Positions 1-31,161 of a stretch of 64,000 nt of DNA are shown here, in pieces. The DNA is from Rhynchopus sp. YZ270_cl-10 (lineage: Eukaryota). Position 1 is the first letter of the stretch, and every line of letters begins with the position of its first letter. The stretch is from positions 1,612,001 to 1,676,000 of the forward strand of contig OZ037836.1 in assembly GCA_964035575.1 (NCBI GenBank). The letters are read 5' to 3'. The notes beneath the pieces are model-generated. The model was not told where the DNA came from. It saw only the letters and a program-made list of their open reading frames with translations, and did not search any database. The translations under genes and the position numbers were made by a program.

Positions 1-49
1 GCACAGACCGGTAGAGATAGCGCTGGATGTAGGTGCGTACAGGCAGATC

Positions 50-3000
50 GTGCTCGCGTACACTCTGCCGAAGCAGTTCCCTTTGGACAAGTGTGGACAA
101 GGCGTGAAGAATGCACAAAAGGCGTTTGCGAGCAAGGAGCTGCAGTGGGGGGCGCTTCAACACCCTCAGGATAGGTGGATACAGTGGAACAAGTGGGCAG
201 AGGACTTCTTGCTGCAGGCGTGCGAAGGCGAGATTGAGGGCCCGACGAAGGCGTATTGCGGAAGAGGCAAAACGTTTGACCCGAAGCCGAAGCACCGGAC
301 TGCGAAGCAGAGCAAGGAAGGGGACGCTCTGACAGTGAGCCAGAGAAGGCTGACGAAGAACGTGGGCAGGCTGGAAGAATGTCGGCTGTGGTACGTGAGG
401 AGCAACGGTGGTGTGCCGCCACATGACGTGTGCAATTGTTGGAGCAAGGCGCGGAAGGAACTGCGTGTTCTGCTGGACGACGACTCACTGCAACAGGATA
501 TGCCTAGCGAGGAGGCTTTGGTGGATCTGTGCAGAGCCGTGCGAGTGAAGGTGTCAACGCTTGCGGACCGAGTGAAGCGGAAGCGACTGGAGGACTGGCG
601 GCAGCGCCTACGGGATGCATGGCACAATGCTCCCAAGGCGATCTTCAAATACTGCAAGGACGAACAGTACAGGAAGATGACTGCCCTGAAGAACGAGGAT
701 GGGAAGTTCACCGCCAACGCTGAGGAGATGGACACCCTCCTGCATGAGGCGTGGATGCCGATTCTTCGCCGATATGCGGAAAAGCCAGAGCCCGACTGGG
801 GTGCGTTTAGGGAGAAGTTTACAGAAGACATCGCAGGCAAGGGGCAAGCGATGCAGATGGACAGGCTGACGGGGAAGGAGTTGCAGCAAACTCTGGGGAG
901 GATGAAGACACAAACTTCTGCTGGGGTGGAGGGTTGGCGCATGGTAGAGCTGAAGGCGCTTCCTCTGGTGCTGCTCGACAGGCTGGCAGATGTGTTTGAT
1001 GCGATTGAGTGTACGGGGGAGTGGCCGCCTTCTTTGATGAGAGCACTCATTGCGCTCATCCCCAAAGGGGAAGACGACACCCCGCTGAAGCAGCGACCTA
1101 TCACGATCACTTCGTGTATCTACAGACTGTGGGCGGCAGCGAGGTTGCGAAGGCTGATAAAGTGGCAGGAAAGCTGGATTGGTGAGCAACAGCACGGCTT
1201 CAGAGCAGGACACAGCACTGCACACCTGTACTGGCATCTGTCGCTCAAGCTGGAGAAGGCGGTACTGTCGGGTGACGACACAGACCAGGTATGGGGCTTC
1301 ACGATCGACTACGCCAAATGTTTCGATCGTGTACCTCATGAGATTGTGCTATCGCTGGCGGAGGAGTGGGGCGCGCACTGGCGTATTCTTGGACCACTGA
1401 GGGCTGCGTACACTGCCATGGAACGCCGCTTCAAGTTGGGAGACGTAGGTGTGGGAGGCACCTTTCGTACGACAAATGGTATCCTGCAAGGATGCCCACT
1501 TTCTGTCGTGCTGTTGAACGCGCTGATGGCGGTGTGGGGATCTGCAGTGACGAGAAGGACCGGAGCAATCGCCATGGGGTACGCTGACGACGTGTATGCT
1601 GTGGCGAACACGGAAGCGGAGGTGCATGGTGCTGCGAGGGTGACGAAGGAGTTTATCACTGCTGCGGACATGGAGGTCAAGGCAGAGAAGTGCGTAGGGT
1701 TTACCTCGAAGGAGGGAACAAAGACGAAGTTTGGACTTGGCGACGGGCTCTTCCCCGACAAGAAGCAGTTCGGGGCGGTTGGAGCAGACATTTTGGCTGG
1801 AAAGGGGAACTTCGGGCCCATCGCGCGTGAGCGTGCGGTTACTGCGCACCGTGTGTTTACGAGGGTTTCGAGTGTGCCTTTATCCTTCACTGAGAAGGCA
1901 CTTATTGGCGCAAGGGGACCAATGATGGCAGCGTTGCATGGGTGCGAAGTGACAGACTTCTCAAAGCAGACCATAGAGACGCTGAGGCAAGGGGCAGCAC
2001 TGGCAGTCTGGGGGCAGGGCAGGAAGCAGCGCACGCTGAACATTGTGTGGCATGTGTTATCTCCGGTTGGGATTGATGCGCCAGCGGAGATTGTGCAGAG
2101 GAGGATGGCGGCCTTTCTCCGACTGACAGAAGATGACGGCATGCGGAGAGAAGCAGAAGACGTGTGGAGGCTGGCACATGACCGAAGAGCGGAGCGGGAG
2201 GTGAGGCGGCGTGACAGGGCTTCAGATCTGGCACGTCTCCGGCGCGAGAACCCTGGGGTTGCCAACCCAAGGGTTACTGAAGTGCACAAGAAGGGTGTGA
2301 TAGAGTTGTTGTGGGACGACCTGGAGCGATACGGATGGCGGTGGAGCAGCTTCGACTTCTGGACCACACACATCGGGTTGAGGGTGCACGTTCGTCTGTG
2401 GGACAAGGGCAAATGGCTGCATGAGCTGAGAGAGGGCATCCGTGCACACGCGTACCGCCTGACAGTGACGACGAGGCCGTCGATGCAGGGCATTGAGGGA
2501 GGTGTGGATCGCCAGGCGACGAACGCAGTGTGGAAGGACCGCACGACCGACAGATACCTGGCGGGCGCGATACGCGGAGCCTTGTCGGGCTCTCAGTTGG
2601 TGGGGGTGCAGCTGCTGAGGAACAAGGAGGTGGAGACTTCGTTGTGCCGATACTGTGGTGAGGCGATAGAGGACCGGAGACACGCTTGGTGGTGGTGCCC
2701 GCAGTGGGACGAAATTCGTGGAGAGGACATCGGAAAACTCCGGGTTTTGCTCAAAGACGCACCCCCGTGCTTCTTGGACTTTGGCCTGGTGCCGACGATA
2801 TTCTTGCAGGAGCTGAGTGTTGCGGAGAGAGAGCAGACGGTGCGTCGTGTGCAACTGATGCTGGTCAGCATCGCGCTGGCAAGGCAGAAGTACGACGTGG
2901 AACATGGGTTTTCGCAGAAGAAGAAGAAGCAAGCGGTGGTGGGCCAATCCCTTTTTCCTTGGGGCTGGAATCCTCAGGAGGGTGCAGTGCTTGAGAGCTA

Positions 3001-4051
3001 CAACCCGCTGGAGAACGTACTGTGGGGGAGCAAGTACATGAAGAAGAGTCCACGCTGGACGGAAGACCACTTCTGGGCGCTGAAGGCATGGCTCGCTGCA
3101 TTGCGTTGGCCTGATGGCACAACGCCCCCCATCACGCAGCTCGAGCTCATGCTGGACTTTGAGATCTTCTCGGGGTTGGACGTACCGGGTGAGACGGTGT
3201 TGAAGAGGGCCGAATCTTTTGGTGCCATGATGCGGACGGCGAAAACTATGGCGCATGGAAGGGACGTATGGAAAGGAGTGGAGAAGAGGGAGGTGCACCA
3301 CTTACAGGAACTGGGTGCGGGGATCATGACGGGGTATTCTGTGCGACCTGTGCTGACGCATGCGGCGGGGGTTGAAGGATACCTGAAGGAGTTGCAGGAG
3401 AAGGCGACGTCGCGGAGAGCACTCTCCCGACAAAAGGAAAAGACGAAGGCGAGGTGGGGTGACGACGCGGATGTGGCTCATACTTCCACTCCGGAAGAAC
3501 GCTCAGCAAAGAACGAACGCTGGAAGGAAGCGAAGGAAGAGCAGAAGCAGGCAGAGGAGGTGCGTAGTAGAGCTGCGATAGCTGCAGTTGCGGCAGAGCA
3601 GATTCGACGACAGGAGGCACGCAGGCGGCAGACACCGGCTGTGCGTGTGGACGTAAGGAGGAAGGTGGGGGCCATGCGGGTGTGTGACATACACACCAAG
3701 ATGCGATGCGGGGACTGCGAGCACAACAACATCTCCATCACGGCGTGTTGTGCGACGCACCATTGTGATGAGCTTATTTTGGGTGACTGTGTGGAGGCGC
3801 GTGAGGCGTGTGAGGTGCATAACTTCTCGATGTGCGGACAGTGTGCGGGTGCGGGGAACGTGTCGATGAAGCAGTGCTGTCAGAAGCACCACAACTGTGT
3901 GGCCCACGGGAGGGGTGCTTGCGGTGCATGTGTGCAGGCGGGACGGAAGAGGAAGAAGGACGGATTGCCGATGCTGGCGTCTCCTCAGGCCTGTTGCGGG
4001 AAAGGGCACCACGACACGTCCCAGGGGCGTCTCGGGTTTGCCCCGCGATAA
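50..4051 (+). CDS. ORF2 of non-LTR retrotransposon (partial): end of APE region, reverse transcriptase, CCHC finger, C-terminal Cys/His repeats
   Basis: RT motifs RPITIT, QHGFR, DYAKCFD, GILQGCPLS, YADD; CRYC...H...C zinc finger. The frame is open from the window start, so the listed GTG is not a real start. Confidence 0.95.
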   Translation: MLAYTLPKQFPLDKCGQGVKNAQKAFASKELQWGALQHPQDRWIQWNKWAEDFLLQACEGEIEGPTKAYCGRGKTFDPKPKHRTAKQSKEGDALTVSQRRLTKNVGRLEECRLWYVRSNGGVPPHDVCNCWSKARKELRVLLDDDSLQQDMPSEEALVDLCRAVRVKVSTLADRVKRKRLEDWRQRLRDAWHNAPKAIFKYCKDEQYRKMTALKNEDGKFTANAEEMDTLLHEAWMPILRRYAEKPEPDWGAFREKFTEDIAGKGQAMQMDRLTGKELQQTLGRMKTQTSAGVEGWRMVELKALPLVLLDRLADVFDAIECTGEWPPSLMRALIALIPKGEDDTPLKQRPITITSCIYRLWAAARLRRLIKWQESWIGEQQHGFRAGHSTAHLYWHLSLKLEKAVLSGDDTDQVWGFTIDYAKCFDRVPHEIVLSLAEEWGAHWRILGPLRAAYTAMERRFKLGDVGVGGTFRTTNGILQGCPLSVVLLNALMAVWGSAVTRRTGAIAMGYADDVYAVANTEAEVHGAARVTKEFITAADMEVKAEKCVGFTSKEGTKTKFGLGDGLFPDKKQFGAVGADILAGKGNFGPIARERAVTAHRVFTRVSSVPLSFTEKALIGARGPMMAALHGCEVTDFSKQTIETLRQGAALAVWGQGRKQRTLNIVWHVLSPVGIDAPAEIVQRRMAAFLRLTEDDGMRREAEDVWRLAHDRRAEREVRRRDRASDLARLRRENPGVANPRVTEVHKKGVIELLWDDLERYGWRWSSFDFWTTHIGLRVHVRLWDKGKWLHELREGIRAHAYRLTVTTRPSMQGIEGGVDRQATNAVWKDRTTDRYLAGAIRGALSGSQLVGVQLLRNKEVETSLCRYCGEAIEDRRHAWWWCPQWDEIRGEDIGKLRVLLKDAPPCFLDFGLVPTIFLQELSVAEREQTVRRVQLMLVSIALARQKYDVEHGFSQKKKKQAVVGQSLFPWGWNPQEGAVLESYNPLENVLWGSKYMKKSPRWTEDHFWALKAWLAALRWPDGTTPPITQLELMLDFEIFSGLDVPGETVLKRAESFGAMMRTAKTMAHGRDVWKGVEKREVHHLQELGAGIMTGYSVRPVLTHAAGVEGYLKELQEKATSRRALSRQKEKTKARWGDDADVAHTSTPEERSAKNERWKEAKEEQKQAEEVRSRAAIAAVAAEQIRRQEARRRQTPAVRVDVRRKVGAMRVCDIHTKMRCGDCEHNNISITACCATHHCDELILGDCVEAREACEVHNFSMCGQCAGAGNVSMKQCCQKHHNCVAHGRGACGACVQAGRKRKKDGLPMLASPQACCGKGHHDTSQGRLGFAPR

Positions 4052-4062
4052 CGAAGGTGGTC

Positions 4063-4117
4063 ACGTGGCGCCTTTCTCACCTCTCAGTTCATCTGAGAAG
4101 GTGGGGATGGGTCACGT
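4063..4117 (+). other. 3' UTR stem-loop of retrotransposon copy 1
   Basis: ACGTGGC/GTCACGT, CACC/GGTG and TCTCAG/CTGAGA arms around a TTCAT loop; identical at 30264-30318. Confidence 0.75.
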
Positions 4118-4130
4118 CAACAAGTTTAAT

Positions 4131-4362
4131 CTCGTTTACCACCCTGGATCTGACACCACTCAAGAAGGTTAAGTACGTAGGTTTGGGTTTTGCTGGGAAC
4201 TGCACTTCGTTGACGAGTATTTACCTTTCCGGTTGCAGCAGTGCTGTGTCCAATGAAGTGAGGAACGGCGAGCTGAGTAAGCTTGTGGTTGAAGCACGTC
4301 CGAAACGAAGCAGAGACGGATCCCCCGAGCAAGCCCACAAACGACGGAGACACGCACAATGA
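4131..4362 (+). pseudogene. 3' remnant of Ubl-LRR-NLS gene (copy A), disrupted by retrotransposon
   Basis: Encodes FTTLDLTPLKKVKYVGLGFAGNCTSLTSIYLSGCSS...RPKRSRDGSPEQAHKRRRHAQ*, homologous to the C-terminus of 10000-11205. Confidence 0.9.
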
Positions 4363-4476
4363 CGACGTGGTGTGTTGGTGGCAGGGATAAAGGGAAGGAC
4401 TGGAAGAAGGGTAAAGGGGGGTGGGATAATTGTAGTGGGGGATAACTGTAGAATCAGGGTATTAATATAAAAGGTC

Positions 4477-4791
4477 CGTCCCTTCCATGCGGCATCGTTT
4501 TCGCCGTCCGCATCATGGCACCAAAAGATTCGGCCCTCTTCAACACCGTCTCACCCGGTACGTCCAACCCCGAGAAGATCTCAAAGTCCAGCATGAGCTC
4601 GAGCTGCGTGATGGGGGGCGTTGTGCCATCAGGCCAACGCAATGCAGCGAGCCATGCCTTCAGCGCCCAGAAGTGGTCTTCCGTCCAGCGAGGACTCTTC
4701 TTCATGTGCTGACTTCCCCACAGTACGTTCTTCAGTGGGTTGTGGCACTCCAATACCGCACCTTCCGGAGGATTCCAACCCCAAGGAAAAA
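4477..4791 (-). mobile_element. Inverted, diverged fragment of retrotransposon ORF2
   Basis: Reverse complement matches ~2952-3267 (NPLKNVLWGSQHMKKSPRWTEDHFWALKAWLAALRWP...). Confidence 0.9.
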
Positions 4792-9999: not shown

Positions 10000-11205
10000 A
10001 TGGACGTGCACTTCGAGGATTTCAGAGCGAATCAGCACACAGTCGAGGTGGGTGCAGATGACACAGTCGAGGGCTTGCGGCGGAAGGTGGCGTCTGCAGT
10101 GGGGTTGCCTGAAGACAGCTTTTGCATGAGTTTCGGAGACGAAGCGATGGGAAAAGGAGCGGACATGACGCAGCTGAGTGCTGGTGACACAATCATCCTC
10201 ACGAAGACGAAGAAGCAAGAAGCCATTGCAGAGCTTCATGCGTTGGGTGTGACCGACATCACAGCCGAGAAGTTGAAGAGTGTGAGGGATCCTGAGGTGG
10301 CGTGTTTGCTTCTGCAGGCAGAGGTTGCGACTGTCATTCCTGATGGGTTCTTGAAGAAGGCATCGTTAACGCATCTTGATCTCAGTGCTGAGTCCATTGT
10401 GACACAGATTGGAGACAGCTTCCTCCAGGAGTGCACCTCGTTGACAAGTATTGACCTCTCTGGGTTGAGCAATGTGACGGTGATGGGCGGTTACTTTCTT
10501 TACGGCTGCGTAGCTTTAACGAAACTGGATCTGACATCACTCAACAACGTTACGAGGATTGGCGGTTACTTTCTTTGCGGCTGCAACTCGTTAACCACCC
10601 TGGATCTGACACCACTGACACTACTCAACAACACGAGGCTGATTGGCAGCAACTTTCTTTCCTACTGCACTTCTTTAACCAGCCTGGATCTGACACCACT
10701 CACCAACGTTACAAGCATTCATGATTACTTTCTTTCCGCCTGCATCTCTTTAACCACCCTGGATCTCTCACCACTGAAGAACGTTAGGAGCATTGAGAGT
10801 AACTTTCTTTACGACTGCGAAACTTTAACCACCCTGGATCTCACACCACTCAAAAACGTGACGGTGATTGGCAATAGCTTTCTTGACGGCTGCGAAGCTT
10901 TAACCAACCTGGATCTGACACCACTCAACAACGTTACGAGGATTGAGAGTTACTTTCTTTACGACTGCGACTCTTTAACCAGCCTGGATCTCTCACCACT
11001 TCACAAGGTGAAGTATGTGGGTTCGGGTTTTGCTGCGAACTGCACTTCGTTGATGAGCATTTACCTTTCCGGCTGCAGCAGTGTTGTGTCCAACGAAGTG
11101 AGGAATAGCGAGGAGCTGAGTGGGCTTGTGGTTGAAGCACGTCCGAAACGAAGCAGAGACGAATCCCCCGAGCAAGCACACAAACGACGGAGACACGCAC
11201 AATGA
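10000..11205 (+). CDS. Ubiquitin-like domain + LRR (9 x 25-aa, BspA/TpLRR-like) + bipartite NLS protein, copy B
   Basis: N-terminal MDVHFEDFRANQHTVEVGADDTVEGLRRKVA...LSAGDTIILT has a ubiquitin-fold pattern. Repeats LTxLDLTPLNNVTxIxxxFLxxCxx. Ends RPKRSRDESPEQAHKRRRHAQ. Confidence 0.9.
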   Translation: MDVHFEDFRANQHTVEVGADDTVEGLRRKVASAVGLPEDSFCMSFGDEAMGKGADMTQLSAGDTIILTKTKKQEAIAELHALGVTDITAEKLKSVRDPEVACLLLQAEVATVIPDGFLKKASLTHLDLSAESIVTQIGDSFLQECTSLTSIDLSGLSNVTVMGGYFLYGCVALTKLDLTSLNNVTRIGGYFLCGCNSLTTLDLTPLTLLNNTRLIGSNFLSYCTSLTSLDLTPLTNVTSIHDYFLSACISLTTLDLSPLKNVRSIESNFLYDCETLTTLDLTPLKNVTVIGNSFLDGCEALTNLDLTPLNNVTRIESYFLYDCDSLTSLDLSPLHKVKYVGSGFAANCTSLMSIYLSGCSSVVSNEVRNSEELSGLVVEARPKRSRDESPEQAHKRRRHAQ

Positions 11206-13082: not shown

Positions 13083-13835
13083 ATGGACGTGCACTTCGAG
13101 GATTTCAGAGCGAATCAGCACACAGTCGAGGTGGGTGAAGATGACACAGTGGAGGGCTTGCGGCGGAAGGTGGCGTCTGCAATGGGGTTGCCTGAAGACA
13201 GCTTTTGCATGAGTTTCGGAGACGAAGCGATGGGAGAAGGAGCGGACATGACGCAGCTGAGTGCTGGTGACACAATCATCCTCACGAAGACGAAGACGCA
13301 GAAGTACGAAGCCATTGCAGAGCTTCATGCGTTGGGTGAGACCGACCTGACGCCAGAGAGGTTGGAGGAGGTGGAGGATCCTGAGGTGGTGTGTTTGCTT
13401 CTGCAGGCGGAGGTTGCGACTGTCATTCCTGATGCGTTCTTGAGGGAGGCATCGTTAACGCATCTTGATCTCAGTGCTGTGTCCTTTGTGACACAGATTG
13501 GAGACGACTTCCTCGAGTTCTGCACCTCGTTGACAAGTGTCGACCTCTCTGGGTTGAGCAATGTGACGGTGATTGGCAGTTACTTTCTTTCCGGATGCTA
13601 CTCTCTAACCAGCCTTGATCTGACATCACTGAGCAAGGTTGAGTATGTGGGTTCGGGTTTTGCTATTTTCTGCACTGCGTTGACGAGTATTTACCTTTCC
13701 GGCTGCAGCAGCGAGGTGTCCAACGAAGTAAGGACGAGTGATCATCTGAGGCATCTTGTGGTTGAAGCACCCCCGACACGCAGCACAGACGAATCCCCCG
13801 AGCAAGCACACAAACGACAGAGACACGCACAATGA
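13083..13835 (+). CDS. Ubl-LRR-NLS protein, copy C (3 LRRs, 250 aa)
   Basis: ATG in the same ACAAACAAATGGACGTG context as the other copies; intact to TGA. Confidence 0.9.
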   Translation: MDVHFEDFRANQHTVEVGEDDTVEGLRRKVASAMGLPEDSFCMSFGDEAMGEGADMTQLSAGDTIILTKTKTQKYEAIAELHALGETDLTPERLEEVEDPEVVCLLLQAEVATVIPDAFLREASLTHLDLSAVSFVTQIGDDFLEFCTSLTSVDLSGLSNVTVIGSYFLSGCYSLTSLDLTSLSKVEYVGSGFAIFCTALTSIYLSGCSSEVSNEVRTSDHLRHLVVEAPPTRSTDESPEQAHKRQRHAQ

Positions 13836-18373: not shown

Positions 18374-20586
18374 ATCATGTTTTCAACAAAAAAAAAAAAA
18401 ACACAAAAAGACAAACAACAAATAAGTCAGCCCTCTGAGTGACCTCTCCCCTCTTTTTACTTTTGCATTATGAAACACATTTCCTCGCTCTACGCACACA
18501 CTATGTCTGATACATTACCCGCAACACCATCGCTGTCGGAAAGGTTGGTGTCCTCTGGATTGGTGTTGACTTTCCAGTGGACACTCCCGTTGGTGTGCAT
18601 GAAGGGACAGCAAAGGGTTGTCTTGAGGACGGGAACGTTGTGTCGCTGTACAACGTCAGCGCCAACGTCTCAGGCGAAGCTCTGAGGACCACGGGGGTGA
18701 AGATGTGTACACATTCCGGAGGCTCCACTGGAGCAACTCTGATCTCGGGATTGACAGCAACGTCCGCACAGTACACCCCGATACAGGTACGGCAGCGACC
18801 CCCTCCTCAGCTTGAAACTACCCTGGTTCACAAAAGGCTGACAATCGGATCGCACGGCTTCCCCACAAACGTCGCTGTGAACACTACAAAGCCTGTTAAG
18901 GGTAAACCCATCCCTGTCCAGACGAGCCGCTCATGGGAGAGGCCCCTGTGAAGATGACCGTACGACGCGAAGGGGGTGGCTGTGGTGACGAAGGTGACTG
19001 ACCTTGAGAAGACCTCACTTCTGGACAGCGAAATGACGTGGAGGAGTGTGCACGCTGGGTCAGGGCTGGAGGAGCAGGCTGTCGTACGACTCGAACCTGG
19101 AGATAAATGTTGCCTTTACGACGGTGCCTTGAGTAGCATGCGTTGGATGTTGTCCCGAACGCACCTAAGTGTATGGTAGGCATGGACACGATAGGTGCTG
19201 TGTTCAAGCTCATTGAGTGTTGGTCTGCCGACATCGGAAACAACATGTTTTGGTGTTGCCAGCCAGACAGTGGTGTGCTCTTGAAGCTCCAAGGCCCTCG
19301 CGATGCCTGGAGCAACGACTCTACTCCAAGGGTTATACGACATTCACGTTCATCCCTGATTCCTGGGGTGGGGTTGGTGCAGTGGCAGGGAAGCACGCTG
19401 TCTCGATCACCCCGACCCCCATGATGACCCTCAGGACTGCGTACGGCAGGGAGCACAGCAAACGTTCTCTTCCTTTCAATCCTCACAGCGAAGCCTCTGG
19501 ACATGGCAAAACACTGTGGGGTGCGCAACTTCGAGGTCGGCTAGGGCACGCCATGCTGTTCCCCTGAAGCCGTCCGTGCAAAGGGTGCCAGCGTGGTGAC
19601 ACTCCACCAAAGAATTCCAGGGGCCGTCAATGGTGAACCCTGACATCAACTGCCCATTAGGCACGGGAGGTGCGGAGTGTCCGCGACCTACGTTGCGGCT
19701 TCTTCCAGGTGGTGGTCCCGGTGGAAGTGCGTCGCTACTTCCGTTTCCTCGACGACGCTGGTGTGTGGTGGGAGTGGACGAGGTTGCAGATGGGCCATTC
19801 CTGTGGCCCATCTGAGGGGGTTGGGGTGGATGTGATGGGGAAACGTTGGCTTCTTTGCCTTTGTCTCTTCTAATGAAGTTGGAAAGAACAAGAAAATAGA
19901 TTGAAACAAAAAAAAAAAAAAAAACGTTATTTTCCTTGTCCTCTTTTATCCACGCATCTCTGTGGAGTTCTCACCTTTTGTTTTCCAGCCGGGATCTGAG
20001 CTAATGACCCTGTGTCTGCAATGATGCTGTTCATTTGATTGATGAGAGGAAGCGGAGGGTGCAGAGGGTGGAGGGCATATCAGATGCAAACCTCGCATTG
20101 GGGTGCACACACAGCACAGTCCTTGCAGTAATGTTCATTTCGTTCTCCCAGATCAGCGGCGCAAGGATTAGCTCCACATAGCCTCACCCACGGGGAAGAG
20201 GACCCCAGCCAGAACCACCGTACGAACGGAGGAACTGCAGAAAACGCCAATACCAACGTTTTCGAGCATTTGTTCAGGGTTGAAACCCTGCAAAATGGGG
20301 TATTTCTTGTCTTGTCCTCCACACCCTACCACCACACACAGAGATCAGAATACAAAACCACAACAAACAAATGGACGTGCACTTCGAGGATTTCAGAGCG
20401 AATCAGCACACAGTCGAGGTGGGTGCAGATGACACAGTGGAGGGCTTGCGGCGGAAGGTGGCGACTGCAATGGGGTTGCCTGAAGACGGCTTTTGCATGA
20501 GTTTCGGTGGCGAACCGATGGGAGAAGGAGCGGACATGACGCAGCTGAGTGCTGGTGACACAATCATCCTCACGAAGACGAAGAAG

Positions 20587-22239
20587 GGGGCAATTAACGT
20601 CTGACCAACCGCCAAGTGGGGCCCCTGGACGCCGTGTTCGCATGGTACTGAGTCAGCGTGGGCGGCCGCCTCTCCAATGATGGATTCGCTCGGGACCGGA
20701 GGAGGAACAAGCCGATGTGGGGACCCTGGTTATTAACACAACATCACAGTCAATTTCGGGCAGATCACCAGCTTATGTAGGCTACGCAAACCCCTTCGAG
20801 GGGTTTCAAGAATCTGTTACCTGTGCGGTGACTGGGAGTGTGTTGATGCCGATGAGGGGATCCCAGGTACAAGAAGGAAGCGTTGCCGGTGTCTCTACTG
20901 GTGACGGAATATTGTTGCTGTTCCTGTGTTGTCGTTTGACCGCATGGGAACGTTTTGTTGCTTTGTTGGTGCGTACACTGTATGTGAAACAACTGTGGAT
21001 CAGCAGGTACGTGCTCTTGTGTATTCAGTGTGGTGTGTTGTAGTTTTGTTCAGTTCAGTTCAGTTTTCATCTTTTTGCCGTAGTAGAATTCTTGTGTTAT
21101 GTGTTTAACCTCAGGCTGTGTACACCGTAGTGAAACATCTGTGGATCTGCAGGTGCGTGCTCTGTCGTTAATTCAGTGTGGCATGTTGTAGTTTTTGGTC
21201 TGTTTTTACGTTTTTATACGTTAGTAGAAGAAGGGATCTGCGAACATTCATTCGCAGGTGGGTACAAGTTGTCGCCGTGGCATTCAGCTACGGTGCAGAA
21301 GAAGTAGTAGGGCAGACCAACGTCTGTGCTAGAAGGAAGAGGTTAAGCTTTCAGGGTGTATGCACTGTACGTGAAACAACTGTGGATCTGCAGGTACATG
21401 CTCTGCTGTTTTTCCATTGTGTTTATTTTTGTTCTATTTTCACGTGCTTTGGTACGTTGACAGATGAAGGAGTTGTCGTCGTGGCGTCCAGCTACGGTGC
21501 AGAAGAGGCAGTAGGGCAGACCAACTACCAACTGTAGGGTCTGTGCTACGCGGAAAGGCTGGTACTTGAGTTTGTTCACTGTTTGTTGTAACTCCTTCCC
21601 TGCCGGCACTCCCTTACTTGTAAGGAAGAAGTTACAACTTTCTCTGTACAAATCAGGGGGATTTTGTGTGGCCGTCTGCCATATTGTGTGGACATGTTAG
21701 CTGACGGTGCTGCTGTTTCTTTTACAGCAACACTGCTCTTGCTGTTGATTTTTCTTTTTCATTTTTACTTTTATTGTTTCGAAAAACGGAGGTTAATGTT
21801 TCCGGTTCGGGCCTGGACTCCGACCCCTACTTTTGCTGACGCGTACGAACGGTCGTGAACCGTCCCCACTCTCTTACGGTGCGGGCAACGCGGTAACGGT
21901 GGCTAGGAAGAAGGGAATCACCCAGAACCACTAATCGCAGCCTGACAGGCACCGAACCTCGGGTGAGAATCCCCTCCTGTCAGCCCTGTTCGAAGTACCT
22001 ATTTTGTTTGACCTTCTTGTCTTTTTGACTTTTTGACTTTTCTTTTATGCTATCGAACAGTGCACCCCCAGTAGTGTTGGCATGCATACCTGGGCTGGTC
22101 GGCTTGCCGATCTGTTCCAGGGACTGGGGTAAAGTGCCATTAAACGCAGCAGGTACCTGTGTTTTTTGGGGGTCTTTTGGTTGGGAAGGTCACAGAAAGA
22201 AGGCCCGGCCTGCCAGAGACCGTTAAAACGGACTACCAC
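20587..22239. mobile_element. 1653-bp non-coding insertion with perfect 19-bp TSD (probable non-autonomous retroposon)
   Basis: CCTCACGAAGACGAAGAAG at 20568-20586 and 22240-22258. No TIRs and no credible long ORF; internal imperfect repeats at ~20970, ~21120, ~21360 and ~21270, ~21470. Confidence 0.85.
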
Positions 22240-22572
22240 CCTCACGAAGACGAAGAAGTACGAAGCCTTTGCAGAGCTTCATGCGTTGGGTGTGACCGAC
22301 ATTACAGCCGAGAAGTTGGAGAGTGTGGAGGATGCTGAGGTGGCGTGTTTGCTTCTGCAGGCGGAGGTTGCGACTATCATTCCTGATGGGTTCTTGAGAG
22401 AGTCATCGTTGACGAGACTTGATCTCAGTGCTGTGTCCTTTGTGACACAGATTGGAGACAACTTCCTCGAGGAGTGCACCTCGTTGACAAGTGTCGACCT
22501 CTCTGGGTTGAGCAATGTGACGGTGATTGGCGATTGCTTTCTTTCCGACTGCAACTCTTTAACCACTCTGGA

Positions 22573-22702
22573 GGGATACACACAACGTACACAAAAAGAA
22601 AGAATATAAACAATGTTTTCGTACATGGTGTCGAAGTCACGTCCAGCCTCCACGCGGAGTATCCCGGGCAACGATCCGTCACACGGATCGGCCAAGTGGA
22701 CG
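22573..22702 (+). ncRNA. HDV-like self-cleaving ribozyme at the element 5' end
   Basis: P1 GGGAUAC(22573-79)/GUAUCCC(22659-65); P2 CGUCCA(22640-45)/UGGACG(22697-702); P3 GCC/GGA (one mismatch); L3 UCCACGC; GG-GCAAC; P4 GAUCCGU-CAC-ACGGAUC; J4/2 GGCCAAG with putative catalytic C22692. Matches the HDV ribozyme layout element by element. Confidence 0.85.
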
Positions 22703-25477
22703 CCACACCCGCCGGCGCCTGTGTGCTGCAGGTCGTGGAACTGCTATTGCAGTGACGAGGTGACGGCGGCGGCGGAGCAGGCGCACTGGACTGAGGGGCT
22801 ACGGCAGCCCGCCTACCCGGGGGCAGGCGGCATGAAGCGCAGTGCAGGGGAGGAGAGGAAGGATCCCGATGTCTTCATCGGAGTAGTGACGGGCGAGAAG
22901 GTGCGGGACACGACGGGGCTGTGTGCGCTGGCGCGTGATGCGACGGAGGAGGAACCAGGAACGCACTGGGAAGTAACCCGCCGCCTGGCAAACATCACCA
23001 AGGCAGAAGCCGCGTACGAGGGCATCCTGCTCGGGCTTCAAGGGGTGGCCGACGGGTCGTACCCGAAGGGCACCCACGCGCGCGTGTGGGTCACGCACTT
23101 GGTGGTCTGGAGGCAGGTGGCTGAGGGGCACGCCTGCGACTCGTCGTTGCTGAAGCCGAGGCTGGAGAAGGTGAAGGCGCTGCTGGGCGAGTTGAAGAAG
23201 AGGGGGATAAGGGTATCGCTGCAGCACTGCGCGAAGGCGGGGAAGGGGATGAAGGAGGCAGAGAGCAACGCCCAGCTGGTTGCAGGAGGGGGGTACGCCG
23301 CAAGGGGATGCAGGACGGAGACGCTGGCAGCTGCCGTGCAGCCAGGTGTCAAGGGACACCTGGAAAGATGGGGGTTGCGATGGGAGGAATGTGGGGGCAA
23401 GGGGGACTGTCTGTTCCGGTCGGTGGCGTGGTCTGTGGAGCGGTCCCCGAATGGTCACGCAGGCTTCCGCAGGCTCGCAGTTGAGGTGATGAAGGAGCAG
23501 AAGGCACACTACAGCCCATTTGTGGACGAGGGGTGCATTGATGCATACCTGGCAGGCATGGCGCAGCTGGGGACATGGGGGGACCATTTGTGTCTCCATG
23601 CGATCGCCAAGGTGATGAAGGTCCGCATTGTTGTGCTTGACGTTGGACCGGAGAACGCGCTACGGGCTACGCTGATCGACGGGCAGTCCGACGGGCAGCT
23701 GGCAGAAGGAACTCCGGAGAAGGCTAACCTCACCTTCACGGAGTCTGACGTAGTCCTGGGGTTCGAGGGGGTACACTACGGTGCTGTGGAATCGGCAGGG
23801 TTGAAGGTGGGGGAGGAACTTCTGTGCGCAGTGGGACAACCGCAACTGCACGTACCGGCTACAGCTGTGAAGGGGAAGAAGAAGGCGACGGCGGTGACCC
23901 AGAGCGCAGCGGAGGATGCACTGAACCTGGCGCCCCAGGGATGGAAAATACCGGTGTGGGATGCAGTGCCCAGCAATGTGGAAGGGGTGACGCAGGTGGC
24001 GGCAGTTGCGTGGAAGGCGAGCGAACTTCTGCAGGGGTTACAGTTGCTGCACCAACTTCCGCAGATGGTGATTGTGTCCCGTTCGAAGTGTACGGGTGCA
24101 GCGCGCACGAAGAAGGCGAAGGTGGCGGTGAAGACGGAGCGGGGAGCAAAGGTGGAAGAAGTGTGGCTGTCGTCCATGACAACTAACTTGGACGACGTGG
24201 TGAAGCCGGTGGAGAGCACGTTCTCGAGCAAGCTGATTACGCTGATGGGCAGAACGATGTTGCTCCAGGGGGAGGGGCGCACAAAGGGAGAGCAACGCAT
24301 GCGTCGGTGGTACGGGTTGCAGGGGGTGCGGTGTGGACGCGGCTTGGAGAGAGGAGGATGGATGGAGATGTCTGTGGACGTGACGGAGGACATGGTGTGC
24401 GCCATGCTGAGGAGAAGCGGACGGGAAGGGGTGTTTGTGCGGCACCTCTTCCAGGCAAAGGAGTACGGGGACTGTGGGTTGTTGTGGAAGGCGGAACCGC
24501 TGGAGTCTGCTCTGGCACGGCTGGACCTTGTTGAGGAGAACATGGAGGATAGCGTGCGCGGACTCGCCGTAGGGGAAGGGGGCTACGCGGTGCGGGTGAT
24601 GAAGGGGGACTTGGAGGCTGCGAAGAGGCTTCTTGTGCAGGAGGACGTCGTCGTGCAGGGACACAGGTACGAGATTGGGGGAATTCCGGCGAACACGTCG
24701 GTCCAGCTGTTGTGTGAGGGGCTGGTGAGGGAGGCGAGCTGGACGGTGAAGGTGCTGTCGCGAGGGCACAAGTGGACGGTTACGTCGGATGTGCCGTGCC
24801 CGAGCACAGAAGGGGTGCTGGAGGTGGGTGGATTGGTGTTGACGGTGTGTGCGGTGAAGGAAGGGCGTCGTGTGCAGAAGGTGGGTGCGAATCCGTGGGG
24901 TTTCCCTCTGGCGCAGTTCCCAGTACCGAGGCAAGGAGCAGCAGAGAGCGGCGCTGGCACGTGGGCGGCTAAGGCGAGGGGATACGCACCACCTGCAGCT
25001 CGACCCCACCCTGCAACAGGGGCACCGGCGGCTCCGGCACCTCCCGCAGCTTCATCAGCAGCGCAGGACGAGATAGAGATGATGAAGAAGGAGATGAAGG
25101 AATTGCGGGAGATGATGAAGGGCGTCATGGAGCAGCAGAAGGAGATGTTGGAGGCACAGAAGCGGATGATGGGACAGCCGCAGCAGTCGGCACCAGTCGC
25201 GCAACCGCCGCAGCCTCTCGACATGGAACAGCTCAGAGCAGAATGTGCTGAGATGAAGGAGACGGTGCAGCAGTGCAAGGACCAGAACGTGCAGCTGGCA
25301 GCGGAGAGCAAGCGGCTCACGGAGGAGAACGAGGCGCTGAAGAAGGCAGCTCGCGAGGCCAAGGACAAGGCCAGGGATGCTCAAGATCGTGGCGGTGAGG
25401 AGAAGAAGAAAGATACGACGACGGACGAGAACAGCCGCCCCCGCGACACGGACAATAACCGAGAAAGGTCGTATTAA
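22613..25477 (+). CDS. Retrotransposon ORF1: degenerate RNase H-like domain + OTU cysteine protease + C-terminal coiled coil
   Basis: TKAEAAYEGILLGL...VTHLVVWRQV...LKPRLEKVKALL...AESNA resembles RNase HI/RVT_3 with the acidic catalytic residues replaced. OTU motifs GKGDCLFRS (Cys266), TWG and VHY (His388). The start might instead be the ATG of MKRSAG (22832). Confidence 0.85.
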   Translation: MFSYMVSKSRPASTRSIPGNDPSHGSAKWTPHPPAPVCCRSWNCYCSDEVTAAAEQAHWTEGLRQPAYPGAGGMKRSAGEERKDPDVFIGVVTGEKVRDTTGLCALARDATEEEPGTHWEVTRRLANITKAEAAYEGILLGLQGVADGSYPKGTHARVWVTHLVVWRQVAEGHACDSSLLKPRLEKVKALLGELKKRGIRVSLQHCAKAGKGMKEAESNAQLVAGGGYAARGCRTETLAAAVQPGVKGHLERWGLRWEECGGKGDCLFRSVAWSVERSPNGHAGFRRLAVEVMKEQKAHYSPFVDEGCIDAYLAGMAQLGTWGDHLCLHAIAKVMKVRIVVLDVGPENALRATLIDGQSDGQLAEGTPEKANLTFTESDVVLGFEGVHYGAVESAGLKVGEELLCAVGQPQLHVPATAVKGKKKATAVTQSAAEDALNLAPQGWKIPVWDAVPSNVEGVTQVAAVAWKASELLQGLQLLHQLPQMVIVSRSKCTGAARTKKAKVAVKTERGAKVEEVWLSSMTTNLDDVVKPVESTFSSKLITLMGRTMLLQGEGRTKGEQRMRRWYGLQGVRCGRGLERGGWMEMSVDVTEDMVCAMLRRSGREGVFVRHLFQAKEYGDCGLLWKAEPLESALARLDLVEENMEDSVRGLAVGEGGYAVRVMKGDLEAAKRLLVQEDVVVQGHRYEIGGIPANTSVQLLCEGLVREASWTVKVLSRGHKWTVTSDVPCPSTEGVLEVGGLVLTVCAVKEGRRVQKVGANPWGFPLAQFPVPRQGAAESGAGTWAAKARGYAPPAARPHPATGAPAAPAPPAASSAAQDEIEMMKKEMKELREMMKGVMEQQKEMLEAQKRMMGQPQQSAPVAQPPQPLDMEQLRAECAEMKETVQQCKDQNVQLAAESKRLTEENEALKKAAREAKDKARDAQDRGGEEKKKDTTTDENSRPRDTDNNRERSY

Positions 25478-25485
25478 TCACGACC

Positions 25486-28400
25486 GTGGGCCTTGCCCCA
25501 CTAAAGATAGTGTGCAGCAATGTGACGGCGCTGCAGACAGGCGGGAGCTCTCTGCTGAAGGTTGCGGAGGATGCTCACGTTGTTCTGGTACAAGAGACAA
25601 AGTGCACCGTGACGACGCAGAAGCGCCTCTCCATCGAGTACCGCGAGCAGGGTTGGCAGGTGGTGTGGGGTAAGGAGTTGCCGGAATGGAGGTCGGCCGA
25701 AGAAGCGAAATCTGGTGGTGTTGCGATTCTGGTGCAAGAGGGAATACCTGTGCTCACGAGCCCGCCCTCCTCAACCTTGGAAAAGAACCTCTGGGACTCA
25801 ACGCGATGGGTGAAGGCGAAGGTGGCGTACGGCAAAGGCAACGAGTGGATCGACGTGACCTCCGTCTACGCGCCGTCGGCGGACCCGGAGGCTAGGGAGA
25901 AAATACTTGGCGAGGTGATGGAGGCTGCTGCAGAGCTTGGTGACATTCCTGGGGTGATTGGTGGGGACTTCAACGCAGGTCCCGGGAAATCAGGTGTGCT
26001 GGCTGCTACGCTAGACACAGGATGGTGGAAGGACACTGCCGAAGAGCACGCAAGGGTGCTTGGGACGACCCCGGAGAACACCTACTTCTCAGTGAAGGAG
26101 GGCAAGGAGATCCGCAAGAGGCTCGATTACGTTCTGCTGAACCGAGCTGCGTGCACAGGGCTGTCGTCTGTGAAGGTTGTCCACGACTCTGGGCTCCCGC
26201 AGCACAGACCGGTAGAGATAGCGCTGGATGTAGGTGCGTACAGGCAGATCGTGCTCGCGTACACTCTGCCGAAGCAGTTCCCTTTGGAGAAGTGTGGACA
26301 GGGTGTGAAGACGGCACAAAAGGCGTTTGCGAACAAGGAGCTGCAGTGGGGGGCGCTTCAACACCCTCAGGATAGGTGGATCCAGTGGAACAAGTGGGCA
26401 GAGGACTTCTTGCTGCAGGCGTGCGAAGGCGAGATTGAGGGCCCGACGAAGGCGTATTGCGGTAGAGGCAGAACGTTCGACCCCACACCGAAGCACCGGA
26501 CTGCGAAGCAGAGCAAGGAAGGGGACGCTCTGACGGTGAGCCAGAGAAGGCTGACGAAGAACGTGGGCAGGCTGGAAGAATGTCGACTGTGGTACGTGAG
26601 GAGCAACGGTGGTGTGCCGCCACATGACGTGTGCAATTGTTGGAGCAAGGCGCGGAAGGAACTGCGTGTTCTGCTGGACGACGACTCACTGCAACAGGAT
26701 ATGCCTAGCGAGGAGGCTTTGGTGGATCTGTGCAGAGCCGTGCGAGTGAAGGTGTCAACGCTTGCGGACCGAGTGAAGCGGAAGCGACTGGAGGACTGGC
26801 GGCAGCGCCTACGGGATGCATGGCACAATGCTCCCAAGGCGATCTTCAAATACTGCAAGGACGAACAGTACAGGAAGATGACTGCCCTGAAGAACGAGGA
26901 TGGGAAGTTCACCGCCAACGCTGAGGAGATGGACACCCTCCTGCATGAGGCGTGGATGCCGATTCTTCGCCGATATGCGGAAAAGCCAGAGCCCGACTGG
27001 GGTGCGTTCAGGGAGAAGTTTGCAGAAGACATCGCAGGCAAGGGACAAGCGATGCAGATGGACAGGCTGACGGGGAAGGAGTTGCAGCAAACTCTGGGGA
27101 GGATGAAGACACAAACTTCTGCTGGGGTGGAGGGTTGGCGCATGGCAGAGCTGAAGGCGCTTCCTCTGGTGCTGCTCGACAGGCTGGCAGATGTGTTTGA
27201 TGCGATTGAGTGTACGGGAGAGTGGCCGCCTTCTTTGATGAGAGCACTCATTGCGCTCATCCCCAAAGGGGAAGACGACACTCCGCTGAAGCAGCGACCA
27301 ATCACGATTACTTCGTGTGTGTACAGACTGTGGGCGGCAGCGAGGTTGCGAAGGCTGATAAAGTGGCAGGAAAGCTGGATTGGTGAGCAACAGCACGGCT
27401 TCAGAGCAGGACACAGCACTGCCCACCTGTACTGGCATTTGTCACTCAAACTGGAGAAGGCGGTGCTGTCGGGTGACGACACAGACCAGGTATGGGGCTT
27501 CACGATTGACTACGCCAAATGTTTCGATCGTGTACCTCATGAGATTGTGCTATCGCTGGCGGAGGAGTGGGGCGCGCACTGGCGCATTCTTGGACCACTG
27601 AGGGCGGCGTACACTGCCATGGAACGCCGCTTCAAGTTGGGAGACGTAGGTGTGGGAGGCGCTTTCCGTACGACAAATGGTATCCTGCAAGGATGCCCGC
27701 TTTCTGTCGTGCTGTTGAACGCGCTGATGGCGGTGTGGGGATCTGCAGTGACGAGAAGGACGGGAGCAATCGCCATGGGGTACGCTGACGACGTGTATGC
27801 TGTGGCGAACACGGAAGCGGAGGTGCATGGTGCTGCGAGGGTGACGAAGGAGTTTATCACTGCTGCGGACATGGAGGTCAAGGCAGAGAAGTGCGTAGGA
27901 TTTACCTCGAAGGAGGGAACAAAGACGAAGTTTGGACTTGGCGACGGGTTCTTCCCCGACAAGAAGCAGTTCGGGGCGGTTGGAGCAGACATTTTGGCAG
28001 GAAAGGGGAACTTCGGGCCCATCGCGCGTGAGCGTGCGGTTACTGCGCACCGTGTATTTACGAGGGTTTCGAGTGTGCCATTATCCTTCACTGAGAAGGC
28101 ACTTATTGGCGCAAGGGGACCAATGATGGCAGCGTTGCATGGGTGCGAAGTGACAGACTTCTCGAAGCAGACGATAGAGACGCTGAGGCAAGGGGCAGCA
28201 CTGGCAGTCTGGGGGCAGGGCAGGAAGCAGCGCACGCTGAACATTGTGTGGCATGTGTTATCTCCGGTTGGGATTGATGCGCCAGCGGAGATTGTGCAGA
28301 GGAGGATGGCGGCCTTTCTCCGACTGACAGAAGATGACGGCATGCGGAGAGAAGCAGAAGAAGTGTGGAGGCTGGCACATGACCGAAGAGCGGAGCGGGA

Positions 28401-30252
28401 GGTGAGGCGGCGTGACAGGGCTTCAGAGCTGGCACGTCTCCGGCGTGAGAACCCTGGGGTTGCCAACCCAAGGGTAACTGAAGTGCACAAGAAGGGTGTG
28501 ATAGAGTTGTTGTGGGACGACCTGGAGCGATACGGATGGCGGTGGAGCAGCTTCGACTTCTGGACCACACACATCGGGTTGAGGGTGCACGTTCGTCTGT
28601 GGGACAAGGGCAAATGGCTGCATGAGCTGAGAGAGGGCATCCGTGCACACGCGTACCGCCTGACAGTGACGACAAGGCCGTCGATGCAGGGCATTGAGGG
28701 AGGTGTGGATCGCCAGGCGACGAACGCAGTGTGGAAGGACCGCACGACCGACAGATACCTGGCGGGCGCGATACGCGGAGCCTTGTCGGGCTCTCAGTTG
28801 GTGGGGGTGCAGCTGCTGAGGAACAAGGAGGTGGAGACTTCGTTGTGCCGATACTGTGGTGAGGCGATAGAGGACCGGAGACACGCTTGGTGGTGGTGCC
28901 CGCAGTGGGACGAAATTCGTGGAGAGGACATCGGAAAACTCCGGGTTTTGCTCAAAGACGCACCCCCGTGCTTCTTGGACTTTGGCCTGGTGCCGACGAT
29001 ATTCTTGCAGGAGCTGAGTGTTGCGGAGAGAGAGCAGACTGTGCGACGTGTGCAACTGATGCTGGTCAACATCGCGCTGGCAAGGCAGAAGTACGACGTC
29101 GAACATGGGTTTTCGCAGAAGAAGAAGAAGCAGGCGGTGGTGGGCCAATCCCTTTTTCCTTGGGGCTGGAATCCTCCGGAGGGTGCAGTGCTTGAGAGCT
29201 ACAACCCGCTGGAGAACGTACTGTGGGGGAGCAAGCACATGAAGAAGAGTCCTCGCTGGACGGAAGACCACTTCTGGGCGCTGAAGGCATGGCTCGCTGC
29301 ATTGCGTTGGCCTGATGGCACAACGCCCCCCATCACGCAGCTCGAGCTCATGCTGGACTTTGAGATCTTCTCGGGGTTGGACGTACCGGGTGAGACGGTG
29401 TTGAAGAGGGCAGAATCTTTTGGTGCCATGATGCGGACGGCGAAAACGATGGCGCATGGAAGGGACGTATGGAAAGGAGTGGAGAAGAGGGAGGTGCACC
29501 ACTTACAGGAACTGGGTGCGGGGATTATGACGGGGTATTCTGTGCGACCTGTGCTGACGCATGCGGCGGGGGTTGAAGGGTACCTGAAGGAGTTGCAGGA
29601 GAAGGCGACGTCGCGGAGAGCACTCTCCCGACAAAAAGAAAAGACGAAGGCGAGGTGGGGTGACGACGCGGTTGTAGCTCACACTTCCACTCCGGAAGAA
29701 CGCTCAGCAAAGAGCGAACGCTGGAAGGAAGCGAAGGAAGAGCAGAAGCAGGCAGAGGAGGTGCGTAAGAGAGCTGCGATAGCTGCAGTTGCGGCAGAGC
29801 AGACTCGACGGCAGGAGGCACGCAGGCGGCAGACACCGGCTGTGCGTGTGGACGTAAGGAGGAAGGTGGGTACCATGCGGGTGTGTGACATACACACCAA
29901 GATGCGATGCGGGGACTGCGAGCACAACAACATCCCCATCACGGCGTGCTGTGCGACGCACCATTGTGATGAGCTTATTTTGGGTGACTGTGTGGAGGCG
30001 CGTGAGGCGTGTGAGGTGCATAACTTCTCGATGTGCGGACAGTGTGCGGGTGCGGGGAACGTGTCGATGAAGCAGTGCTGTCAGAAGCACCACAACTGTG
30101 TGGCTCACGGGAGGGGTGCTTGCGGTGCATGTGTGCAGGCGGGACGGAAGAGGAAGAAGGACGGATTGCCGATGCTGGCGTCTCCTCAGGTCTGTTGCGG
30201 GAAAGGGCACCACGACACGTCCCAGGGACGTCTCGGGTTTGCCCCGCGATAA
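25486..30252 (+). CDS. Retrotransposon ORF2: APE endonuclease, RT, CCHC finger, 3x Cys/His module
   Basis: APE motifs SNV, VQETK, GGVAILV, SVYAP, GDFNA, RLDYVL, QHRPV; RT YADD at 27781. The frame is open from 25459 and has no ATG before the APE domain. Confidence 0.95.
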   Translation: MGLAPLKIVCSNVTALQTGGSSLLKVAEDAHVVLVQETKCTVTTQKRLSIEYREQGWQVVWGKELPEWRSAEEAKSGGVAILVQEGIPVLTSPPSSTLEKNLWDSTRWVKAKVAYGKGNEWIDVTSVYAPSADPEAREKILGEVMEAAAELGDIPGVIGGDFNAGPGKSGVLAATLDTGWWKDTAEEHARVLGTTPENTYFSVKEGKEIRKRLDYVLLNRAACTGLSSVKVVHDSGLPQHRPVEIALDVGAYRQIVLAYTLPKQFPLEKCGQGVKTAQKAFANKELQWGALQHPQDRWIQWNKWAEDFLLQACEGEIEGPTKAYCGRGRTFDPTPKHRTAKQSKEGDALTVSQRRLTKNVGRLEECRLWYVRSNGGVPPHDVCNCWSKARKELRVLLDDDSLQQDMPSEEALVDLCRAVRVKVSTLADRVKRKRLEDWRQRLRDAWHNAPKAIFKYCKDEQYRKMTALKNEDGKFTANAEEMDTLLHEAWMPILRRYAEKPEPDWGAFREKFAEDIAGKGQAMQMDRLTGKELQQTLGRMKTQTSAGVEGWRMAELKALPLVLLDRLADVFDAIECTGEWPPSLMRALIALIPKGEDDTPLKQRPITITSCVYRLWAAARLRRLIKWQESWIGEQQHGFRAGHSTAHLYWHLSLKLEKAVLSGDDTDQVWGFTIDYAKCFDRVPHEIVLSLAEEWGAHWRILGPLRAAYTAMERRFKLGDVGVGGAFRTTNGILQGCPLSVVLLNALMAVWGSAVTRRTGAIAMGYADDVYAVANTEAEVHGAARVTKEFITAADMEVKAEKCVGFTSKEGTKTKFGLGDGFFPDKKQFGAVGADILAGKGNFGPIARERAVTAHRVFTRVSSVPLSFTEKALIGARGPMMAALHGCEVTDFSKQTIETLRQGAALAVWGQGRKQRTLNIVWHVLSPVGIDAPAEIVQRRMAAFLRLTEDDGMRREAEEVWRLAHDRRAEREVRRRDRASELARLRRENPGVANPRVTEVHKKGVIELLWDDLERYGWRWSSFDFWTTHIGLRVHVRLWDKGKWLHELREGIRAHAYRLTVTTRPSMQGIEGGVDRQATNAVWKDRTTDRYLAGAIRGALSGSQLVGVQLLRNKEVETSLCRYCGEAIEDRRHAWWWCPQWDEIRGEDIGKLRVLLKDAPPCFLDFGLVPTIFLQELSVAEREQTVRRVQLMLVNIALARQKYDVEHGFSQKKKKQAVVGQSLFPWGWNPPEGAVLESYNPLENVLWGSKHMKKSPRWTEDHFWALKAWLAALRWPDGTTPPITQLELMLDFEIFSGLDVPGETVLKRAESFGAMMRTAKTMAHGRDVWKGVEKREVHHLQELGAGIMTGYSVRPVLTHAAGVEGYLKELQEKATSRRALSRQKEKTKARWGDDAVVAHTSTPEERSAKSERWKEAKEEQKQAEEVRKRAAIAAVAAEQTRRQEARRRQTPAVRVDVRRKVGTMRVCDIHTKMRCGDCEHNNIPITACCATHHCDELILGDCVEAREACEVHNFSMCGQCAGAGNVSMKQCCQKHHNCVAHGRGACGACVQAGRKRKKDGLPMLASPQVCCGKGHHDTSQGRLGFAPR

Positions 30253-30263
30253 CGAAGGTGGTC

Positions 30264-30318
30264 ACGTGGCGCCTTTCTCACCTCTCAGTTCATCTGAGAA
30301 GGTGGGGATGGGTCACGT
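30264..30318 (+). other. 3' UTR stem-loop of retrotransposon copy 2
   Basis: Same hairpin as 4063-4117; no poly(A) tail follows. Confidence 0.75.
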
Positions 30319-31161
30319 CAACAAGTTTAAGCTCTTTAACCGCCCTGGATCTCACACCACTCAACAACGTGACGGCGATTAGCTATGGCTTTCTCAACCG
30401 CTGCCAAGGCTTAACCACCCTGGATCTGACACCACTCAACAACGTGACGGTGATTGGCAATAGCTTTCTTGAGAGCTGCTACTCTTTAACCACCCTGGAT
30501 CTTACACCACTCAACAACGTTACGAGGATTGAATTTAACTTTCTTTACGGCTGCACCTCTTTAACCAGCCTGGATCTCACACCACTGAGCAAGGTTGAGT
30601 ATGTGGGTTCGGGTTTTGCTAATAACTGCACTTCGTTGACGAGTATTTACCTTTCCGGCTGCAGCAGTGCTGTGTCCAACGAAGTGAGGAATAGCGAGGA
30701 GCTGAGGCATCTTGTGGTCGAAGCACGTCCGAAACGAAGCAGAGACGAATCCCCCGAGCAAGCACACAAACGACAGAGACACGCACAATGACGACGTGGT
30801 GTGTTGGTGGGAGGGACTGGAAGAAGGGTACGAAGGGAGGTGGAAGGGGCCGGTAGGTACTGCCTACTCTACTCGTCTGCACAAACTTTACAAAACAAAA
30901 AAAATAGTGGAGCACACAGGATAAAGTCTGCCTAGAACTAGGGTCGTGCTATTCGCATAACTCGTTAGGCGATTGGGTGTATCTGGCTTACAGCAACCAA
31001 AACAAAAGAATTGGCAGTGCAGACTGCACAACTGTGGCAACACAACCGAGGCAACTAAAGGGGGGGGAGGGATAATTGTAGTGGGGGATAACTGTAGAAT
31101 GGCGGATAAAATAAAAAATGTCGCCAGTTTGTTCTTCTCAAAAAATGGGGGATAGTTGTAG

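Follow-up and report, generated by a model that had tools for sequence, protein, structure and literature searches.

Target-specific retrotransposons with an APE endonuclease fall mostly into the R1 and Tx1 clades, and the targets given for them in passages of two papers are rRNA, tRNA, snRNA and spliced-leader genes, microsatellites, telomeres and other transposons (PMC4640811, PMC8869645). Among euglenozoan elements, the ingi clade is described as having relative site specificity and 12-bp target duplications (PMC3820030), and relative site specificity is likewise reported in passages on ingi/RIME and L1Tc (PMC5814959). Passages on ingi/RIME also describe a hot spot in the coding sequence of the RHS genes, where insertion gives rise to split pseudogenes and truncated proteins (PMC7563717). 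A fixed target in a coding gene family is thus already known for an APE-type LINE, and the claim of the original prediction that a coding-repeat target had not been described gives way to this published ingi/RIME site in trypanosome RHS genes. The TcTREZO element of T. cruzi is found mostly within pseudogenes of the MASP family (PMC5814959). For Diplonema papillatum, the available text of the genome paper treats LINEs by annotation only and defers their rigorous analysis (PMC10161547); neither that text nor the seven supplements searched with it gives a target preference. A literature search, whose reach ended short of Repbase entries and most subscription papers, returned no description of an LRR-coding target.

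Here, we describe an APE-type LINE of the diplonemid Rhynchopus sp. YZ270_cl-10 that, judged from sequence, occupies one LRR codon in at least six genes, represented by two copies in the window (the whole 64,000-nucleotide stretch analysed) and by four further paralogs. We consider it probable that this element inserts repeatedly at the Leu-Asp codons of the LRR unit, likely by target-primed reverse transcription with a strong but relaxed endonuclease preference. As far as the cited texts describe them, ingi/RIME and L1Tc/NARTc with the RHS genes are the closest parallel: in both cases a euglenozoan APE LINE combines relative specificity with a fixed site in a coding multigene family, and, as with ingi/RIME, non-autonomous partners use the same family. 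Against the same descriptions, the target here is a unit repeated inside each gene, whereas RHS offers one site per gene; the duplication measures 16-19 bp rather than a fixed 12 bp (PMC3820030); there are two ORFs with an OTU domain in ORF1, whereas ingi has a single ORF with RNase H after the RT; the 3' end is a hairpin and lacks the poly(A) of ingi; and two elements use two different sites. Membership of the ingi clade was considered and fails on duplication length, ORF layout and poly(A); our RT tree comprised diplonemid-like and unnamed sequences only. TcTREZO, as described, resembles the present element in inserting into a protein-coding family but is composite and has no LRR target (PMC5814959). 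R1 and Tx1 elements, in the texts available, share with it the APE endonuclease and the repeated target as a safe haven, and differ from it in that coding repeats serve here as target and specificity is relaxed. CRE, SLACS and CZAR are likewise euglenozoan and occupy a constant relative position in a multicopy gene (PMC12278014), but they carry an RLE endonuclease and a poly(A) tail and use the spliced-leader RNA gene; membership of this group is ruled out by the APE domain and the coding target.

What is new is the lineage, a target repeated within each gene, and the use of one family by two elements. The system appears to be a second, separate case of a euglenozoan LINE that lands in a protein-coding multigene family, here by way of a repeat unit in the gene, and it would add a new kind of safe haven to RNA genes and simple repeats. 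It supplies naturally occurring target variants with which to study how an APE domain acquires sequence preference, indicates that one gene family can host two elements at two fixed sites, and provides a second system after RHS in which to ask whether LINE hot spots drive or exploit family growth.

The target family and the two LINE copies in the window

The interrupted genes belong to a family (Ub-LRR) whose proteins consist of a ubiquitin-like domain, BspA-type LRRs with a unit of 25 residues (75 bp), and a basic C-terminus. A profile search yielded 1163 matches; the best 120 are family members on 27 contigs, distinguished by their lengths, and 50 of these 120 sit on one 2.16-Mb contig. With at least 120 genes and up to about eight LRR target sites in each, the family would tolerate insertions. 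The LINE copies and the Ub-LRR genes of the window are as follows.

1..4129, + strand: LINE copy 1, of which the window start leaves the 3' 4.1 kb; ORF2 is open until its stop at 4051
4131..4362, + strand: 3' remainder of the Ub-LRR gene hit by copy 1, with the final LRR unit and the C-terminus
10000..11205, + strand: intact Ub-LRR paralog (ubiquitin PF00240, BspA-type LRR PF13306), with the empty target visible
13083..13835, + strand: intact Ub-LRR paralog
15757..16725, + strand: intact Ub-LRR paralog
20371..20586, + strand: N-terminal, ubiquitin-like portion of the gene that carries two insertions
22240..22572, + strand: middle part of the gene hit by copy 2, which runs into the LINE 5' end and meets a stop 11 codons on
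22555..22572, + strand: 5' half of the copy 2 target site duplication, 18 bp, in an LRR unit, ending inside the Asp codon of Leu-Asp-Leu
22573..30330, + strand: LINE copy 2, full length, 7758 bp, lacking a poly(A) tail; its final 1-2 bases could also be read as target
30332..30349, + strand: 3' half of the copy 2 duplication, with 2 mismatches to the 5' half
30332..30791, + strand: 3' part of the gene hit by copy 2, encoding four LRR units and the C-terminus
53133..54182, + strand: intact Ub-LRR paralog

Both copies have identical 3' ends (4129 and 30330), each followed by one base (T and G, respectively) and then, at 4131 and 30332, by the same 18-nt motif of the LRR unit. This shared ending, the motif before copy 2 at 22555-22572 and the sense orientation of both copies had been pointed out in the original prediction, and re-reading the sequence bore them out; the copies also sit in different LRR units, as had been proposed, copy 1 being followed by the last unit of its gene and copy 2 lying in an early unit with four units after it. 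The two insertions share the same phase of the 75-bp unit, for which the chance is 1/75 given insertion within such units, and these units make up about 2.6% of the window outside the elements.

Aligned without gaps, the two copies differ at 79 of 4130 positions (98% identity), with 51 synonymous and 22 non-synonymous codon changes. Their last 230 nt are 98.7% identical, whereas the flank of copy 1 reaches only 83.5-89.7% identity to the corresponding stretch in five paralogs, including the gene of copy 2, which argues against segmental duplication of a single insertion. The halves of the copy 2 duplication differ at 2 of 18 positions, both being private transitions where all 18 intact units are invariant; these mismatches exceed expectation for so young an element and speak against the reading that we favor.

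Structure and relatives of the LINE

The full-length copy contains two ORFs and a short, structured 3' UTR.

22613..25477, + strand: ORF1, 954 aa, with a degenerate RNase H-like fold, an OTU protease domain and a C-terminal coiled-coil-like region
22862..23239, + strand: probable RNase H fold of archaeal type within ORF1, weakly supported (Z 5.8 for a low-confidence model)
23396..23641, + strand: OTU cysteine protease domain of ORF1 (PF02338, E 1.7e-12), catalytic Cys motif present
25459..30252, + strand: ORF2 (coordinates run from stop to stop; the called protein has 1588 aa), with APE, RT, a CCHC finger and a Cys/His-rich C-terminus
25567-26166, + strand: APE domain of ORF2 (PF03372, E 4.6e-9), motifs intact
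27259-27912, + strand: RT domain of ORF2 with YADD (PF00078, E 2.8e-22), motifs intact
30253..30330, + strand: 3' UTR, 78 nt, folding as a long hairpin more stable than all 200 shuffles (z = -5.5)

An APE domain N-terminal to the RT, intact motifs, a target duplication and the lack of LTRs (self-BLAST revealed no terminal repeat) identify the element, on sequence features, as an APE-type non-LTR retrotransposon. The best PDB matches of ORF2 are to L1 ORF2p, and no Pfam RNase H match was found in ORF2; the OTU domain of ORF1 is matched best by human OTUD3. The N-terminal domain of ORF1, folded without an alignment (mean pLDDT 55), gave archaeal RNase H1 as its best match (Z 5.8, rmsd 3.7 over 99 residues), with a second match at Z 5.0, while Foldseek returned nothing at E<=0.001 for this domain and placed RNase HI at rank 50. 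On reading by eye, its catalytic acidic residues look to have been lost. Elements of the ingi clade have a 5' signature of 76-79 bp with an HDV-like ribozyme; here, no Rfam ribozyme was matched in positions 1-32000, and the 5' 108 nt of the LINE are no more structured than shuffles.

Protein clustering placed 33 members with ORF2 and 15 and 6 members in two ORF1 clusters, all spread over many contigs, and the element copies form several sequence groups 10-38 residues apart. Among ten full-length ORF2s, several are only 1-4 residues apart on different contigs, which suggests recent activity; the LINE has likely been active recently. The six-member P0068 cluster consists of an ORF1 variant that is 71% identical over residues 70-430 and nearly identical in its C-terminal half, a recombinant subfamily. 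For the 20 near-full ORF1 proteins listed, 15 share a contig with listed Ub-LRR members (9 of the 20 being on the family's main contig) and 5 do not.

The nearest relative is a sister family that includes transcripts of Rhynchopus euleeides (58% over the RT region, SH-aLRT 100), and Diplonema papillatum LINE proteins are about 33-46% identical to the window LINE. The RT search gave 66 matches, mostly to D. papillatum or unnamed proteins and none to trypanosomatid proteins, and a protein-cluster atlas gave only generic RT clusters. In the related LINEs P0045 and P0055 an OTU domain is fused in frame to APE-RT, P0055 also having RNase H; the OTU domain is thus a feature of the lineage and not special to the LRR target. 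Metagenome scans gave no match to the last 20 nt of the element and two pattern matches to ORF2, neither of them confirmed, and a phage tblastn search gave no match.

Recurrence of the insertion site

Junctions were sought in the best 120 of the 1163 family proteins, using the element ends in all three frames and at any position in the gene. Three proteins (P0156, P0206 and P0213) run into the LINE 5' end in the same frame as at the window junction, and in P0207 the junction lies one nucleotide earlier; P0225 is a near-duplicate of P0213 and was counted with it as one. All five 5' junctions (window, P0156, P0206, P0207 and P0213/P0225) therefore fall at the same Leu-Asp codon, within 1 nt, and their distances to a fixed anchor (75, 150, 175, 175 and 200 residues) are exact multiples of the 25-residue unit; the chance of five junctions inside a 2-nt window of a 75-nt unit is about 5e-7. 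Forty of the 44 5'-flagged rows of the scan and all five 3'-flagged rows were chance five-residue matches and were dropped, no 3'-junction protein was found among the best 120 members, and a 67-residue 3'-junction frame matched one protein representative, an unrelated repetitive protein. P0205 was rejected as an insertion, its ubiquitin-test anchor being missing through an internal deletion.

The five interrupted paralogs are 71-87% identical, and 52-72% identical over the last 25 residues before the junction. Clade tests used 34 of 123 rows, namely every interrupted paralog and its neighbors, the 123-row tree being mostly unresolved; over 105 columns of this recombining family, a single clade of the five was rejected (p-AU 0.013). 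With the insertions in separate units, and in separate paralogs that do not group as one clade, a single duplicated insertion is unlikely. Segmental duplication, which the original prediction had raised against itself, thus finds no support either in this test or in the flanks of the window copies, which are more diverged than the element ends. All interrupted paralogs found lie on the 2.16-Mb contig, except one near-duplicate on a 7.6-kb contig, and local effects are possible since that contig holds 50 of the best 120 members. The protein search detects copies in coding DNA only, among the best 120 of 1163 matches, and the junction counts thus have no denominator.

The 3' junction was compared with sequencing contigs from four runs of three studies, the frames of the flanks being read by hand. 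Nineteen of 29 loose ends were listed, 11 of them behind the element end, giving 10 distinct flanks; because contigs drop repeats and 19 of 29 ends are listed, the flank counts are not proportions, and contig depths were not taken as copy numbers. Five of the 10 flanks are LRR units in register, three from the Ub-LRR family with a spacing of 17 or 19 nt and two from diverged LRR types in which the position of the Leu-Asp codons is conserved. The variation in spacing is compatible with separate priming events, and, since diverged LRR types are hit in register, the element probably recognises a short sequence close to the upper-strand cut. The other five flanks are non-LRR. One, in run X6, adjoins an element end identical at 76 of 76 positions, at approximately the depth of the element body, and is the sole identical off-target end; one adjoins a diverged end and partly matches the motif in register (at 30334); and three belong to short, diverged hairpin copies of 55-70 nt with their own duplications of 14-18 nt. 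A 5'-end contig of run X6 opens with the last five bases of the target. The short hairpin copies, from runs X1, X3 and X4, match window positions 30262-30332, lie in non-LRR DNA and are either SINE-like or products of extreme 5' truncation; the LINE 3' end is shared by at least one further family in these runs.

The proposal that the coding LRR repeat is the target stands in one respect, recurrence at one phase beyond the two window copies, and falls in another, exclusivity, given the 76/76-identical end with a non-LRR flank. The evidence points to a strong rather than an exclusive preference for the LRR unit. Strict site specificity of the R1/Tx1 kind, with the off-target flanks assigned to older copies or other families that share the 3' hairpin, is in our judgement unlikely: four of the five non-LRR flanks do adjoin ends that carry 1-4 differences or gaps over 52-70 nt, three of these off-target cases are short copies whose duplications end in another tetramer, the diverged end at 30334 partly fits the target in register, and each of the five 5' junctions seen in genes hits the target, but the X6 end is identical and off target, two on-target flanks resemble the main unit little outside the Leu-Asp codons, as expected of a short motif, and 5 of the 20 listed ORF1 proteins lie on contigs without a listed family member.

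A strong but relaxed preference, by contrast, would place the element at the same codon in different genes, likely because the endonuclease prefers a short sequence. Target-primed reverse transcription is an established mechanism. In its application here, the APE domain would nick the lower strand some 16-19 nt ahead of the point where the motif ends, the RT would bind the 3'-UTR hairpin and prime at the nick without poly(A), and the upper strand would be cut almost exactly after ...CTGGA of the unit, with a 16-19-bp duplication and a truncated gene as the predicted result. The Ub-LRR family may serve as a harmless sink, by analogy with the RHS genes of trypanosomes.

A second element and the origin of the insertions

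The gene interrupted by copy 2 carries another insertion, upstream of the LINE, which the original prediction had overlooked.

20587..22239, + strand: second element, 1653 bp, no ORF longer than 121 codons, at the end of the ubiquitin-like domain in the gene of copy 2
20568-20586 / 22240-22258, + strand: perfect 19-bp duplication flanking the second element

The second element gave no significant match to the fetched proteins, no tRNA and no Rfam match. Six of the best 120 family proteins (P0142, P0145, P0202, P0211, P0215 and P0216) lack the ubiquitin-like domain and start with a peptide that resembles the 3'-end frames of the second element, joined at the same site as in the window, the Ub/LRR boundary; the match comprises only 4-14 residues, at the protein level. 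The AU test strongly rejects a single clade uniting these six paralogs with the window gene (p-AU 1e-41). The second element thus appears to recur at its own fixed site in unrelated Ub-LRR paralogs, as a second hot spot. Its ends and target differ from those of the LINE, so a different LINE family is the likely mobiliser.

Could recombination, rather than repeated insertion, account for the distribution of the LINE? One or two ancestral insertions might have spread through unequal crossover or gene conversion, with LRR units and the element as homology and no sequence preference. The confinement of interrupted paralogs to one contig, the near-duplicates P0213 and P0225 and the unequal halves of the copy 2 duplication fit such a history, but the flanks are diverged right up to the junction, the junction register varies at both the 5' and the 3' ends, monophyly of the interrupted paralogs is rejected, two flanks come from diverged LRR types, and the element copies fall into several sequence groups; we regard this explanation as still less likely than strict specificity. 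Least probable is loosely specific or region-driven insertion with survival of copies in a redundant family under weak selection, which would accommodate the second, unrelated insertion in the gene of copy 2, other element fragments in the array region and the 9 of 20 ORF1 proteins on the family's main contig but accounts neither for the single codon phase shared by all five 5' junctions (p ~5e-7) nor for the second element's own fixed site.

Beyond repeated insertion by an endonuclease with a relaxed preference, a wider interpretation is possible, though we hold it doubtful. The LINE could represent an independent diplonemid lineage outside R1 and Tx1, with an endonuclease that reads Leu-Asp-Leu codons and targets LRR-coding DNA in several gene families; alongside the second element, it might truncate and split genes of a growing Ub-LRR family at the borders of domains and repeats, and the OTU domain could act on the ubiquitin-like product of the target family.

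Several other features of the window were noted. Antisense fragments of an internal part of ORF2 (4477-4791, - strand, 95%) and of an ORF1 relative (52310-52863, - strand, 73%) lie outside LRR DNA, and both adjoin the same 290-bp repeat (4828-5113 / 51977-52267). An exact 248-bp tandem duplication at 5350-5850 is reverse-related to a stretch near 50400-50530, and a long, perfect 7-bp tandem array occupies 42282-42806. Downstream of a Ub-LRR gene, an AT-rich, MITE-like insertion with many inverted repeats is found at 17065-17542. A 75-nt SSU rRNA fragment (8038-8112; RF01960, E 2.4e-12) is situated directly behind a reticulon-like gene. Finally, a large LRR_6-type gene at 54963-61053 belongs to another LRR family and is without a LINE insertion in the window.
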